DNA of 37,914 bases, from assembly GCA_964623505.1 (NCBI GenBank), contig CAZUSP010000003.1:1-37914 (forward strand), in the 5' to 3' direction. Numbering within the stretch: the stretch's first letter is position 1; every line of letters begins with the position of its first letter. The notes beneath the pieces are model-generated. The model was not told the DNA's origin, searched no databases, and saw only the letters and a list, made by a program, of their open reading frames with translations. The translations under genes and the position numbers were made by a program. Source of the DNA: an uncultured Candidatus Saccharibacteria bacterium (GTDB taxonomy: Bacteria; Patescibacteriota; Minisyncoccia; Minisyncoccales; UBA1441). Shown in pieces: positions 28,197 to 33,939 of this stretch.

Positions 28197-30668
28197 CTAT
28201 TGTTTACTTTCCTCCAGCAAACAGGCGGCCGAAGCCACCTTATCTCCGGGAGCCAGCTTCATGATCTTCACCCCCGTCGTCGCCCGACCAAAAATTGAAA
28301 TGGTTTTCACTTTGGTTCTGATGATATTGCCCTTGGTGGAAACAACGATCAGGTCGGACTCTTCGTTATCAATAAGTTTAGCAAAAATAAGGTTGCCTGT
28401 CTTGCCCCCCAGTTTTGCCGTAATAATTCCCTGGCCGCCCCGACTTTGCCGGCGATAATTGGCCATGACCGTTCTCTTGCCATAACCCTTTTCACTCAAG
28501 ATCAAAAGTTGAATCTTTTTTAGATCAGTTCCGACCCTGATTACCGCCAAGCCAACAACTTCGTCATCTTTGCCCAAAGAGATGCCCCTGACCCCGGCTG
28601 TTACCCGGCCCGTTGCCCGAACTCCCTTTTCGGGAAAAAGAATTGACTTGCCTTGCCGCGTAACAATCATTATTTGATCATCGCCGCTGGTTTCAGCCAC
28701 GGCTTTCAACCAGTCGCCTTTTTTAAGCTTAATAGCCTGAAGTCCGCTTTTCCTAATATGCAAATATTCTTTCTTGTCTGTTCTTTTGATCATTCCTTTC
28801 TTGGTGGCCATAACCAAATAGTTTTGCTTGGCCCCGGTTTTTTGATTGAGCACCGACAACACTCTTTCGTTGGCCTCAATCGGCAGATAATTAGCCAGTC
28901 CTCTTCCCCGGCTGACCCGGCTTCCCTCTTCTATCTCATAGGCCGGTAAATCATAGACCTTCCCGGTGTCCGTAAAGAACAGCAGCTGATCATGGGTCGA
29001 AACCGAGATGAAGTGTTCAACAATATCGCCCTCAATCGTTTTCATCCCCACGATCCCGCGCCCGCCTCTTTTCTGTAATTTATAGACTTCGGGCTGATTT
29101 CTTTTGATGTATCCCTTTTGAGTGATAATAATGAAATTCTCTTGATCGGGAATCAGATCTTTCTTCGATATCTGTTTAACTGATCCGGCAATTATCTCGG
29201 TTTTTCTCTCGTCTCCGTGTTTTTTCTTGACCTCGGCCAACTCCTGCTGAATAACCTTTTCAACTTTTTTCGGACTGGCCAATAAACTCTTCCATTCTTT
29301 GATCCTCTTCTCAATGTCCTTAAGTTCTTTTTCTATCTCGATTCTCTCCAGTTTGGCCAGACGATGAAGTTTTATCTCTAAAATAGCCTCGGCCTGAACC
29401 TGGCTTAATTTGAAATTCTTGATCAAATTACGAGCGGCATCAATCCGGTCTTCGGATTTTTTAATAACCGCAATCACTTCATCAATGTTCGCCAAGGCGA
29501 TCATTAGCCCGGTCAGGATATGCTGTCGTTTCAGGGCCCGGTCAAGATCAAACTTGGTTCGACGAACAACCACCTCCCGGCGGTGATTCAAATAATGAGT
29601 TAAAATATCAACCAACGAAAGAACCCTTGGCTGGATGCCGTCTACCAGGGCAACCATGTTGATATAATGCTTTTTTTCTAGGTCCGTATAGCGATAAAGC
29701 TGATTCAAAATTCTCTGCGGAAAGCCCTGCGGGGATATGTCTAAAACTACCCTCAATCCTTCCCGGTCAGACTCATCTCTGATGCTCTTAATGCCCTTAA
29801 TCTTTTCTTGGCTGGCCAGATCGGCTATTTTCGCGACCAGAGCCGCCTTGTTAACCCGATAGGGAATCTCCGTGATGATAATTTGAGCCCCTTTTCCTTT
29901 TTCAACTATCTCAGCCCGGCCGCGATTTAAAACCCCGCCCTTGCCCTGTGAATAGGTTGAAACCAGCTCTCCCTGCCCATAAATTACGCCGCCGGTCGGC
30001 AGATCCGGCCCTTTGACAAATTGGAACAGGTCTTCGGTCGTCGCCTCGGGATTATCAACCAGATAATTAAGCGCATCGCAAAGTTCGCTTAAGTTGTGGG
30101 GCAGGATATTGGTGGCCATGCCAACGGCAATGCCCACCGTGCCATTCAACAGTATTTGGGGCACCGGCGAAGGCAGAACCGAAGGCTCTTGAAAGGTTCC
30201 ATCATAATTCTCAACGAAATCAACTGTTTCTTTTCCAATGTCGGCCATAATGTCTTCCCCAAAGGAAGATAGTTTGGCTTCGGTATAGCGCGGAGCGGCT
30301 GGCGGATCGGAATCAATTGACCCAAAATTTCCCTGCCCTATCGCCAGTGGATACCTTCGGACAAAATCCTGGGCCAGCCCCACCATGGCATAATAGACCG
30401 AAGTGTCGCCATGAGGATGATATCGCCCCAGACAATAACCAACAATGGCCGAAGACTTCTTGGTTGGAGAAGAGTGCTTTAACCCCATCTCATACATCGA
30501 ATAAAGTATTCGACGATGAACCGGTTTGAGGCCGTCCCGCACATCAGGCAAAGCCCGAGAAACAATGACCGACATGGCATAGTCCAAATAGGACTCGCGC
30601 ATTTCATCAACTATTTCTCGGGGAACTATTTCTTTGGCCGCTTTAGTTGGATTTTCCGTTTTGCTCAT
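28197..30668 (-). CDS. gyrA: DNA gyrase subunit A
   Basis: 823 aa. SRALPDVRDGLKPVHRRILYSM, HPHGD, catalytic-Tyr region APRYTEAKL, and C-terminal beta-pinwheel repeats. Confidence 0.95.
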   Translation of the reverse strand: MSKTENPTKAAKEIVPREIVDEMRESYLDYAMSVIVSRALPDVRDGLKPVHRRILYSMYEMGLKHSSPTKKSSAIVGYCLGRYHPHGDTSVYYAMVGLAQDFVRRYPLAIGQGNFGSIDSDPPAAPRYTEAKLSSFGEDIMADIGKETVDFVENYDGTFQEPSVLPSPVPQILLNGTVGIAVGMATNILPHNLSELCDALNYLVDNPEATTEDLFQFVKGPDLPTGGVIYGQGELVSTYSQGKGGVLNRGRAEIVEKGKGAQIIITEIPYRVNKAALVAKIADLASQEKIKGIKSIRDESDREGLRVVLDISPQGFPQRILNQLYRYTDLEKKHYINMVALVDGIQPRVLSLVDILTHYLNHRREVVVRRTKFDLDRALKRQHILTGLMIALANIDEVIAVIKKSEDRIDAARNLIKNFKLSQVQAEAILEIKLHRLAKLERIEIEKELKDIEKRIKEWKSLLASPKKVEKVIQQELAEVKKKHGDERKTEIIAGSVKQISKKDLIPDQENFIIITQKGYIKRNQPEVYKLQKRGGRGIVGMKTIEGDIVEHFISVSTHDQLLFFTDTGKVYDLPAYEIEEGSRVSRGRGLANYLPIEANERVLSVLNQKTGAKQNYLVMATKKGMIKRTDKKEYLHIRKSGLQAIKLKKGDWLKAVAETSGDDQIMIVTRQGKSILFPEKGVRATGRVTAGVRGISLGKDDEVVGLAVIRVGTDLKKIQLLILSEKGYGKRTVMANYRRQSRGGQGIITAKLGGKTGNLIFAKLIDNEESDLIVVSTKGNIIRTKVKTISIFGRATTGVKIMKLAPGDKVASAACLLEESKQ

Positions 30669-30966
30669 TGTTTTCTTTTATCTGCTCTAAATCATCTGTT
30701 TCTTGAATCAGGCCATCCATTCCTTCGGGAAAAAGACGATCCAGGCTCCAGCCACCCCAAGGCTGGTCAACCTCTCGCCAATTATCAGAATCTTTGATCG
30801 ATTCAAGGCCAGGAATCTCTGAACGATCAACCGTTCTAATCCTTTCAGCCACTCTCTGCCCCCACCAGAACAACATTATCAATCCCAGCAAAACAACCGT
30901 TCCCCATAGAACATATTCTTTTTGACGCTTCGGTCGTTTTCTCAATTTGGTCAGCCAGACGATCAT
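30643..30966 (-). CDS. Small membrane-anchored protein of unknown function
   Basis: 107 aa with a basic N-terminus, one TM helix (VLWGTVVLLGLIMLFWW) and an acidic tail. ATGA overlap with the upstream gene and a 26-nt overlap with the gyrA start. Confidence 0.5.
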   Translation of the reverse strand: MIVWLTKLRKRPKRQKEYVLWGTVVLLGLIMLFWWGQRVAERIRTVDRSEIPGLESIKDSDNWREVDQPWGGWSLDRLFPEGMDGLIQETDDLEQIKENNEQNGKSN

Positions 30967-31538
30967 GTTTGATTAAGTACTTTAACCACCAAACCCTCCT
31001 TCGGCAGACTGTCAGCCTGAAGATTGATTGAATCTTCTGGCTTAACTTGCTCCACGCCCATTATCTTTAAAAACTGCTTTAGCTCTTCGGGCTGATAATT
31101 CATTGGAACTACCGATCGCGGCTCTATGCGCGAAATTAGCCTGGCCGCAAATTTGGCACCAATCTGCCCCCCGATGGAAATAACCAAAACATGAATATCG
31201 CCCAGTTGCTCTATCTGGCGATCATCCAAGGCGGCCTGCCCTAATCCACTTAAGTAGGCAAGCTTCTCGCCATTGAGATCCAAAATATAGATTATGTGAC
31301 CATCATCCTGAATCCCCTTGACCAATATGTTCTTGATGTCATACTCTCCCGGATAATTGATTAAAAATGTTTTTTCTTCACTGACTCCTTCCATCTTTTC
31401 AGCCAATCCAACCAAAACCAAATCCGGTTCAATTGATTGAATTTTTTTACCCGGATGACCAAGAATAATGGTTGCTTCTGGCTGTTTGACTCTGTCTTTA
31501 ATCAAAAAGCAGCTGTCGCTTAAGCGAGTGATGATCAT
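30963..31538 (-). CDS. MBL-fold (UPF0173-like) protein lacking the HxHxDH metal motif
   Basis: 191 aa. ITRLSDSCFLIK..., PGEYDIKNILVKGI and IHVLVISIGG...IEPRSVVPMNY follow the layout of small MBL-fold hydrolases, but no His cluster is present. Confidence 0.45.
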   Translation of the reverse strand: MIITRLSDSCFLIKDRVKQPEATIILGHPGKKIQSIEPDLVLVGLAEKMEGVSEEKTFLINYPGEYDIKNILVKGIQDDGHIIYILDLNGEKLAYLSGLGQAALDDRQIEQLGDIHVLVISIGGQIGAKFAARLISRIEPRSVVPMNYQPEELKQFLKIMGVEQVKPEDSINLQADSLPKEGLVVKVLNQT

Positions 31539-31610
31539 CGTTATAGATCTATTTTAGCATTTAAAAGCAGAAAAAAAAGCTCCCCTGGCACGCCAGTTAA
31601 TTAAAACGAC

Positions 31611-31636
31611 AAAGCCGATCCGCTAAGATCGGCTTT
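31611..31636 (-). terminator. Hairpin terminator downstream of the pseudogene cassette
   Basis: Perfect 10-bp stem AAAGCCGATC / GATCGGCTTT with a 6-nt loop. The minus strand continues GTCGTTTTAATT. Confidence 0.55.
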
Positions 31637-31709
31637 GAAAAAATCAATCAGTTGGAGCAGGTGGGGGTTCTTCTGTTCGCGGGGTCCGGTTCGACGACCG
31701 CCGAGAAAA

Positions 31710-32195
31710 CTAAATGCAGGAGCCAGCGACCCGGATAAAGTAGCCCCAACCCACCTCTAATCATCCACCAGCCGGAACTCTAACATACTGGTCATCCGAA
31801 CCAAGGCCGGGATCTCGCCGTTGAATAGAAGATGCTTGGCGGTCGCCGGTGATTCAGTCTATTCCAATTCCTCCGGCCGGAGCGCCAATCATGTGCCAGC
31901 CAGCGCCGACCAGATTGACCGAGCCGCTCCAAGGAGTAGTTCCGGGAATCGGAACGGTGTAATCCCGCATGGCTCTAATCCAGCAACCATGACCAGGGGT
32001 TATGGTGCTGGAGGCATCATACTCATTGCGGGCCAGATTCCAGCGACAGAAAGCAACATTCCGGCGCATCTCTGAGAGACATCGCTCAAGCTGGGATCAG
32101 CGCCAGCTATCGGCAAGGAGACCATATTCCACCCTTCTCTAAGAGACCAGCTCTGGCCGCTGGGCGCTGGAGTCGGAGGTGGATCATTCTCAACC
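31710..32195 (-). pseudogene. Degenerate, promoterless copy of the last ~155 codons of the upstream 562-aa gene
   Basis: The translation aligns with the C-terminus of 32251..33939: PPPTPAPSGQSWSLREGWNMVSLP... / ...VNLVGAGWHMIGAPAGGIGID*ITGD...*LEVGWGYFIRVAGSCI*. It is broken by one frameshift near 32065-32075 and two in-frame TGA codons. It lies beyond that gene's terminator. Confidence 0.75.
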
Positions 32196-32212
32196 ACCAA
32201 GGTAAAAACAGG

Positions 32213-32241
32213 CAAAAAAGCCGGCCCCATTAAGGGCCGGC
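32213..32241 (-). terminator. Rho-independent terminator of the 562-aa gene
   Basis: GCCGGCCC-CATTAA-GGGCCGGC (32220-32241). On the minus strand it is followed by TTTTTT (32214-32219). It begins 10 nt after the TGA stop. Confidence 0.8.
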
Positions 32242-32250
32242 CTAATTAAA

Positions 32251-33939
32251 TCAGAAACCCAGAGTACAAGATCCGGCCGTCCGGAACCAGTAGCCCTGTC
32301 CTTCCTCTAAACGAGTCGGTCGAACATACTCCCTGGCTGAAGGGCTCCAGCCCCAGATAGAACTGACCTGGCAGTCGCCGGTGATCCGGTCTATTCCGAT
32401 TCCTCCGGCCGGAGCGCCAACCATGTGCCAACCAGCGCCGACCAGAGAGACGCTACCCCGCCAAGGCGAACCAGTGACGGGAAGGCGGCAGGGTTGATCA
32501 ACCCCGATCCAGTATCCCTGTCCCGGAACCATTGATTCGGGTTTGTAATAACTATTGGCTGATCGAGACCATCCCCAGATAACACTATTCGCACAATGAG
32601 AGGAGATGGTTGAAAAGCTTAAAGAGCCGCTGGCCGGCCAAGAGACCATGTTCCAACCGGGGCTGAGGGATATATTTGAAGCCGCAGAATCCGGCGGAAC
32701 CGGAGTCGGTGGAGCTGCTCCGGCAAAGCTGCACTCAACCGAACCAGAGACCGCCCTCCGGATATTGGGACAGGCACAATCATAGAACTGCCAATCCAGC
32801 CTTGGACGACCCGCTGCTATGCCTCTAGAATCAACTCTAACTGATCCCTGATGCCAAACACCCATCTGCCTTTCATTTGAACTTAGCGGGATCACTCTCA
32901 TCAATCTTGGCTCTTGAACACTCCCGAGATAAAGAGTTGTTCCGGGAGGATTGATATAGCGATAGTTGATAACCACGAAGTCAGAACCTCTCTGGCCACA
33001 ACTAGGTTCTATAACGAAAGAAGTGGGTAGCGCCGCTAAAGTCTGGCAGGTGGCTGGTGAGCCGATATTAGGCCAGCCGCTGGCACTGCTTTTAACCTGA
33101 TAAACATAGCTCTGCCCCTGTTTCAAGTTAGTATCGGAAAAGCTGACCGTTTCATAATCACCGTGCTGTCGGCGCGATAATTTGCTTAATTGAACTCCAT
33201 CTCGATAAAGATAAAAATCGTCGTAGCCGCCACGAACTTTAATGCTTAAGTCGATTGCGCTTTGATTTTTGGCCCGACAGGTAATTTCAGCTGAAGAAGC
33301 GGGGCAGTTGCAGCAACATCTTTCGCAAGGGAAAATCCGGCTGCAAACACTAAGCGTTGTTTGCGGATCTCTCATTCCGGCCGGACAATCCATGAGACAG
33401 CCGACTCCTTTCCACCGGCACTCACCCGGACAACCCCACTTTTCCATACATACGCTGTTACAAGAAGCCGCTTTCGGCTTCTCTTTCTCCGGATCAGAGG
33501 ACTGCCGCCCATAAGAACACTGTGTTTCGGCCAAAATCTTATTGGGCGGACATGATGTGTTTCCTCGCCAGAGATAATAAGTATATTGCCTTTCTGGTTC
33601 TATGCGAAAAGAGCCCCAGTGGCCATAATTAAAAACCTTGTCGTCAACAATGGATCCTGAACTGCTATACGGAATCAACCAAGCTCCGATCGTGGCCACC
33701 GTCTTCTGGTCTTCCTCATCCATTTTCCGTTGATTGTTGAAATAAGAGCCCTTGCGGACAATATGAACGATCTCAATCGCATTGGAAAAGCCATAATTAA
33801 CTGTCACCGAGTTGCCGTTATGAACGCAGGTGATCCATCCGGCCTCCCCGCCTTGCGCTGATGACGTTTGAATCAGCGCCATCAGACCAAAAATACCAAC
33901 GAACAACACCACCAAAGAAAACAATGCTTTGTTTTTCAT
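32251..33939 (-). CDS. Secreted Cys-rich surface protein with Fn3-like modules and two C-terminal GW...IWGW...GQGYW modules
   Basis: 562 aa with a signal peptide (…LIQTSSAQG). Contains 15 Cys within aa 130-221 (CNSVCMEKWGCPGECRWKGVGCLMDCP...CERCCCNCP). Fn3-like segments, a PT linker, then a tandem ~65-aa module pair. Confidence 0.8.
   Translation of the reverse strand: MKNKALFSLVVLFVGIFGLMALIQTSSAQGGEAGWITCVHNGNSVTVNYGFSNAIEIVHIVRKGSYFNNQRKMDEEDQKTVATIGAWLIPYSSSGSIVDDKVFNYGHWGSFRIEPERQYTYYLWRGNTSCPPNKILAETQCSYGRQSSDPEKEKPKAASCNSVCMEKWGCPGECRWKGVGCLMDCPAGMRDPQTTLSVCSRIFPCERCCCNCPASSAEITCRAKNQSAIDLSIKVRGGYDDFYLYRDGVQLSKLSRRQHGDYETVSFSDTNLKQGQSYVYQVKSSASGWPNIGSPATCQTLAALPTSFVIEPSCGQRGSDFVVINYRYINPPGTTLYLGSVQEPRLMRVIPLSSNERQMGVWHQGSVRVDSRGIAAGRPRLDWQFYDCACPNIRRAVSGSVECSFAGAAPPTPVPPDSAASNISLSPGWNMVSWPASGSLSFSTISSHCANSVIWGWSRSANSYYKPESMVPGQGYWIGVDQPCRLPVTGSPWRGSVSLVGAGWHMVGAPAGGIGIDRITGDCQVSSIWGWSPSAREYVRPTRLEEGQGYWFRTAGSCTLGF

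Follow-up and report, generated by a model that had tools for sequence, protein, structure and literature searches.

A probable pseudogene stub of a former tandem paralog, carrying an apparent gene-conversion tract, behind an intact surface-protein gene

The surface-protein gene and the relic behind it

The stretch of DNA analyzed here (referred to as the window) measures 37.9 kb and contains one intact surface-protein gene, gene A in what follows, which was taken from the list of open reading frames (ORFs) and codes for 562 amino acids. The parts of its product are, in order, a signal peptide, a Cys-rich region, an Fn3-like unit, a PT linker, and two GW/GYW modules. When the protein was compared with Pfam and NCBIfam, no model reached its threshold. 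An ortholog, P0002, with 43% identity and shared synteny, was the only sequence returned by a word-index search with the 562-aa protein, and a scan of GTDB genomes for closer relatives gave only distant family members (23 to 34% identity). The positions of all features are collected in Table 1.

A degenerate sequence, relic B, follows on the same strand, between the terminators T1 and T2. Using the last 155 residues of A as a tblastn query against the window, this downstream region was the sole other match, with module 2 aligned at 32042..31716 (51% identity, E = 5e-29) and module 1, in another frame, at 32179..31895 (32% identity, E = 6e-7). The matches and the position of T1 bear out the first-pass annotation, which had reported a same-strand copy of the PT linker and both modules of A beyond the terminator of that gene. 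The two frames of B join once one base is restored at ca. 32057 to 32061, so that the frameshift reported before is indeed present, close to the position originally proposed (32065 to 32075). The two in-frame TGA codons described as standing opposite Arg codons of A were both recovered (CGG and CGT), and a third premature stop, a TAG, has to be added to them. In total, B carries one frameshift and three in-frame stops within ca. 560 nt, and several conserved residues are gone, namely, C77, C116, Y69, and the W-x-W motif of module 2.

Past the TAG, the frame of B runs for 21 further codons, to ...EEPPPAPTD, and then reaches the original TGA stop at 31644 to 31646. Among 106 family members, 51 have a Pro-rich tail of this kind, while the clade to which A belongs (the gene-1 clade, composed of A, P0002, and P0004) ends in TL[GN]F followed by the stop instead. 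Similarity between the tail of B and that of P0009, a paralog described below, was not significant (p = 0.27). We also considered B as the former coding tail of A itself, and this was ruled out, since A shares its end point, at TL[GN]F, with its orthologs P0002 and P0004.

A Logan contig, probably derived from the same reads, matches the locus base for base. The Logan assembly of the same sample splits into two contigs at 31694-31695, just beyond the end of the relic, where a branch in the graph or low depth is possible.

Table 1 Features of the locus, with positions given in the numbering of the window
Feature	Position	Strand	Description
Intact gene A	32251..33939	minus	562 aa, stop TGA; from the ORF list
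PT linker and two GW/GYW modules of A	32254..32718	minus	Last 155 codons; portion resembled by the downstream piece
Tract partner within A	32369..32446	minus	Encodes LVGAGWHMVGAPAGGIGIDRITGDC; probable donor
Terminator T1 of A (intrinsic)	32218..32243	minus	11-bp stem and T-run, -24.4 kcal/mol, z = -3.7
Relic B	31644..32206	minus	3' ca. 185 codons of a probable former paralogous gene: PT linker, two degenerate GW/GYW modules, Pro-rich tail EEPPPAPTD, original stop
Frameshift site in B	32057..32061	minus	Lacks one base, GGA(A)T; flanked by the Cys and the W-x-W motif of module 1
Putative gene-conversion tract in B	31837..31914	minus	72/78 identical to A, 6 transitions
In-frame TGA inside the tract	31854..31856	minus	Opposite Arg CGG of A (two transitions)
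In-frame TGA in module 2	31761..31763	minus	Opposite Arg CGT of A
In-frame TAG, third premature stop	31710..31712	minus	Opposite Leu of ...SCTLGF in A
Terminator T2 (intrinsic)	31610..31637	minus	12-bp stem, -26.6 kcal/mol, z = -4.8; begins 6 nt after the original stop of B
Lactamase_B_3-like gene	30963..31538	minus	191 aa; synteny anchor, 58% identical to the protein of the relative

Mosaic similarity between gene A and relic B

A blastn comparison of A and B showed a single shared block of 78 nt, with 92% identity and an offset of 532 nt, in which all six differences are transitions; the earlier description of a core of ca. 76 nt with about six differences, all of them transitions, agrees closely with this. 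The longest perfect run between the two copies is now 22 nt. In a gapped local DNA alignment, A and B were 61.6% identical, and outside the core, homology was recognizable only via the protein. We therefore built a codon alignment guided by the protein sequences, in which B and the 3' end of A were joined by the ortholog P0002 (C in the alignment) and the fragment P0004 (E). In the flanks of the core, A and B shared 51% of all nucleotides, with an identity of 0.59 at first and second positions and of 0.34 to 0.35 at third positions, where the random expectation is 0.27. Third positions are thus near saturation, and the first-pass statement that the flanks are visible only at the protein level holds. 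For the flanks of A and P0002, the third-position identity was similar (0.34 to 0.36).

The 24-codon core behaves differently from the flanks. Here, A and B were identical at 67 of 72 nucleotides and at 21 of 24 third positions, compared to 13 of 24 third positions for A and P0002. The difference in third-position identity between the core (21/24) and the flanks (43/124) was significant by Fisher's test (p = 4e-7) and by site permutation (p ≤ 1e-4). The nearest sequence to B is A within the core; the flanks of B, in contrast, are no closer to A than to the orthologs of A. Since constraint at the protein level is unable to yield such identity at third positions, the core is best explained as a genuine gene-conversion tract, as the first-pass annotation had suspected from the mosaic.

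We then compared the flanks at the amino acid level. B was 43% identical to A, 44% to P0004, and 40% to P0002, with higher values within the gene-1 clade (A and P0002, 53%; A and P0004, 58%; P0002 and P0004, 59%). The orthologs that are equidistant from B come from two organisms other than the source. The quartet-informative flank sites were distributed 5:4:2, and a signal joining A and B was absent. The ratio of changes at first and second positions to those at third positions was 0.43 to 0.46 on the branch of B and 0.27 to 0.30 on that of A, where a copy that had never been under selection would give 1. With third positions nearly saturated but an identity of 0.59 at first and second positions, and with a branch ratio that is raised but far from 1, B was evidently constrained by purifying selection for the greater part of its separate history, followed by relaxation, and was inactivated late. 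On this evidence, it was part of a working gene during most of that time.

Along similar lines, outside the core, B is devoid of three synapomorphies of the gene-1 clade, that is, a 1-aa deletion before G-W, the Gly found there, and the FRT of GYWFRT. Instead, it has the length typical of the family and I-R-V. It is thus a well-supported reading of the sequences that B represents the remnant of a distinct array member, functional in the past, and would not be a derivative of the present gene A.

The tract itself contains some indications of polarity. In its first half, B bears the hallmark of the gene-1 clade, GAGWHM, the His of which occurs in only 5 of 145 family members, while P0009 has SAGIYM. 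In the same half, nucleotide identity between A and its orthologs (0.76 to 0.84) is similar to that between the orthologs (0.80). A therefore looks native and B looks acquired in this part, and conversion probably ran from the intact gene A into relic B, a direction based on parsimony over ca. 15 codons. No polarity can be read from the second half (IGIDRITGD), which resembles none of the orthologs. At least five of the six differences within the core are derived in B: a V-to-I replacement, one synonymous change, both transitions in the CGG codon that is now TGA, and a Cys-to-Arg replacement at a Cys that is invariant in the family. Neutral decay of B since the conversion amounts to ca. 7 to 8%.

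The locus in a related organism

The synteny comparison involves one organism, present in Logan sample SRR32456876, which was the sole close relative found, and two of its contigs, L001 and L016, that are not joined to each other. The order of genes is FtsH, S1, P0002 (gene 1), and gene 2 on contig L001, and P0009, a Lactamase_B_3-like gene (191 aa), a 97-aa gene, and GyrA on contig L016. P0009 is intact (444 aa), has its GW modules at residues 188 to 330, and is directly followed by the Lactamase_B_3-like gene. The window agrees with this in its flanking genes and their order, and B occupies the site of the intact P0009. A word-index search with P0009 returned nothing.

Gene 2 (L001, 4850 to 5650), located directly behind gene 1, starts with a signal peptide that is followed by an Fn3-like unit, and it has neither the N-terminal nor the Cys-rich parts. 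Its 3' end is missing, as the gene is cut by the end of the contig, and nothing in the window corresponds to it, so that the size of the array differs between the two organisms. In the relative, there are at least three paralogs at the locus (P0002, gene 2, and P0009), compared to one gene plus the stub in the source genome. A scan of JGI metagenomes anchored on the Lactamase_B_3-like neighbor retrieved only loci that were 29 to 35% identical, with no GW genes nearby.

In order to place B among these paralogs, we relied on the flanks. In a maximum likelihood tree based on the flanks only, B grouped with P0009 (UFBoot, 98), although both are on long branches, and long-branch attraction is possible. 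B and P0009 also have rare states in common, specifically, GYF, additional residues at two indel sites, and Phe and Pro at positions where other family members seldom or never have them. On the other hand, a sister relationship between B and A was not rejected by the AU test (delta lnL, 12.9; p = 0.19), and raw similarity places B nearer to the gene-1 clade (35% between B and A) than it does to P0009 (29%). A 114-aa extension of P0009 has no counterpart in the source. Considering synteny and the shared states, B is probably the ortholog of P0009, while it could also have descended from a member of the gene 2 type.

Some other features of these contigs deserve mention. The DNA upstream of the Lactamase_B_3-like gene (31549-31580, AAATGCTAAAATAG) is 85% identical to positions 1440-1473 of contig L016 and is probably the conserved promoter of a lactamase-like-gyrA operon. 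The GyrA of the relative (L016, 2331-3182) has an intein-like insertion right after GQGNMG (C-F-T-K-D-T-K-I-K-L...), and the GyrA of the window (28197-30668) is uninterrupted there. A 729-bp contig from a third organism, GCA_036681025.1, codes (L003, 1-620) for a protein in which the Cys-rich region (...CPSCQICCCAS...) is joined straight to the GW modules, Fn3-like and middle domains being absent; the start assigned to this protein by the gene caller was an internal ATG.

Origin of the relic and competing explanations

Our preferred reading, to which we assign a probability of about 0.75, is that B is a pseudogene stub, the 3' end of a once-functional tandem paralog located behind A, which was later patched by conversion from A. 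The sequence of events may have been as follows. In the common ancestor with the related Patescibacteria-type organism, several paralogous surface-protein genes would have formed an array, bordered by the S1 and Lactamase_B_3-like genes. In the source lineage, we infer a deletion that spanned the interval from the terminator of the first gene to the PT linker of the final member of the array. The latter would thereby have lost its promoter and start, and its Pro-rich tail, stop, and terminator would have remained together with the two GW/GYW modules. The stub would then have drifted neutrally, by ca. 0.1 to 0.2 substitutions per site, acquiring the frameshift and the three stops and losing conserved Cys, Trp, and Tyr residues. 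Around or after the time of inactivation, a single short ectopic gene conversion of the RecA type may have copied ca. 75 to 78 nt from A into the stub, and five to six more transitions would have accumulated in the patch afterwards, two of them making TGA out of CGG. At present, the stub probably has no function.

Tandem arrays of surface-protein paralogs with lineage-specific gain, loss, and truncated relics are common in host-associated and reduced genomes. The locus is like these arrays, with at least three paralogs in the relative, one and a stub in the source, and a stub that retains its own terminator, and there would be nothing unusual about it; the GW/GYW domain itself is uncurated. 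Ectopic (interparalog) conversion is also well established, with short tracts exchanged between bacterial paralogs such as tufA and tufB and within multigene surface families, and CYP21A2/CYP21A1P as the textbook pair of gene and pseudogene. As in these gene/pseudogene pairs, B contains a short, near-identical tract, synonymous sites included, within old and diverged paralogous sequence, the phylogenetic signals of tract and flanks conflict, and one of the partners (B) is nonfunctional. In contrast to them, the transfer was here probably from the functional gene into the pseudogene, with no phenotypic consequence, and only one tract is visible, itself ca. 8% decayed. A literature search on gene conversion of pseudogenes in Patescibacteria retrieved nothing relevant. 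If the preferred reading is correct, a layout that resembles a cassette for antigenic variation would be explained by an ordinary loss from a tandem surface-protein array plus one inconsequential conversion tract. It would also suggest that surface-protein arrays in reduced genomes of the Patescibacteria type turn over between related lineages and that homologous recombination acted on tracts of less than 100 nt.

An alternative is that only the 3' end of A itself, from the PT linker to the terminator, was duplicated in tandem and that the copy, B, was never expressed and decayed plainly, apart from one later homogenizing conversion. Decay of such a duplication was the null hypothesis of the first-pass annotation. 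It would account for the location of B directly downstream on the same strand, for the identical order of the modules, and for the terminator after each unit, and besides the outcome of the AU test, A is nominally the best BLAST match to the core-masked copy (75.9 bits, versus 70.9 for P0004). However, a copy that had never been expressed would be expected to show a branch ratio of ca. 1 and not 0.43 to 0.46, nor would it retain 59% identity at first and second positions. B is, moreover, equidistant from A and from the orthologs of A in two other organisms, ends in a Pro-rich tail and stop that are missing in the gene-1 clade and has its own terminator, is without the three synapomorphies of that clade outside the core, and lies where the relative has an intact paralog. 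For these reasons, we consider an origin from A itself rather unlikely.

The first-pass annotation had also put forward a silent cassette of the pilS or vls type, by which B would be kept as a promoterless reservoir donating patches that vary the C-terminal modules of A. Silent-cassette antigenic variation is known from Neisseria (pilE/pilS), Borrelia (vlsE/vls), Anaplasma (msp2), Treponema (tprK), and Mycoplasma genitalium (MgPa repeats). These systems have several to many in-frame cassettes, in which conserved anchors flank the variable segments, and transfer proceeds from the donor to the expression site. B is reminiscent of them as a promoterless, partial copy on the same strand, next to an expressed surface-protein gene to which it is linked by one clear conversion tract. 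Where they have several cassettes, a single copy came to light here: no further copy was found in the 37.9-kb window, and no other contig in the one assembly of the sample was at least 80% alike. Instead of conserved anchors bracketing variable segments, there is one homologous patch, the remainder having ca. 51% nucleotide identity, and the longest perfect run is down to 22 nt. The patch holds a TGA and the Cys-to-Arg replacement, and the flanks hold the frameshift, two more stops, and lost invariant residues, so that any transfer would disable A. The near saturation of the flanks points to a very long time with no exchange, ca. 8% divergence has built up since the sole visible event, and the polarity suggests that the expressed gene was the donor, probably the opposite of what a cassette system involves. 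Variants of the expressed gene were not visible in the assembler contigs of one run (ca. 9.5× depth). A silent donor cassette is therefore very improbable. We give equally little credence to a related version, in which A and the stub would form a minimal one-cassette system in an ultrasmall episymbiotic bacterium and the 78-nt patch would have been left by exchange that recurred and possibly went both ways. Were it true, exchange would remodel the loop after the GAGWHM strand, and this loop (IGIDRITGD) is the only part of A that is unlike all its orthologs.

Least probable of all is continued expression of B, be it as small proteins (ORFs of 76 aa at 32000-32230, minus strand, and 71 aa at 31854-32069), through recoding by TGA read-through and frameshifting, or as a structured 3' untranslated region or RNA, since although a gene caller picked the 76-aa ORF in the Logan contig and read-through of T1 could transcribe the region, the ATG of this ORF lies inside the T1 stem, both ORFs are merely unbroken stretches of decayed frames, and a search for sigma-70-like promoters between 31400 and 32400 found none, in keeping with the first-pass view of an untranslatable copy. 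Recoding of TGA was ruled out, since this codon is a true stop here, terminating 8 of the 29 long ORFs in the window, A included, and an RNA element was ruled out on the grounds that no Rfam family matched at threshold.

A more useful by-product of the analysis is the GW/GYW two-module domain itself. The modules of the 562-aa protein and of P0009 matched no Pfam or NCBIfam family at threshold (FlgD_ig, Por_Secre_tail, and others), and the matches of P0003 to PF18962 and PF13860 fall outside its GW/GYW part. In a Foldseek search against the PDB, nothing scored better than E = 0.2, with TM values below 0.3. An AlphaFold2 model of the modules was all-beta, with a pLDDT of 95 and a pTM of 0.85. 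Judging from this model and from the searches, the domain is predicted to fold with confidence, is uncurated, and has no solved structural relative. It is also widespread; an exhaustive search at E ≤ 1e-3 recovered 2,715 cluster representatives, in both archaea and bacteria, in which the two modules are usually C-terminal and occur alongside PKD, CARDB, and other surface domains.
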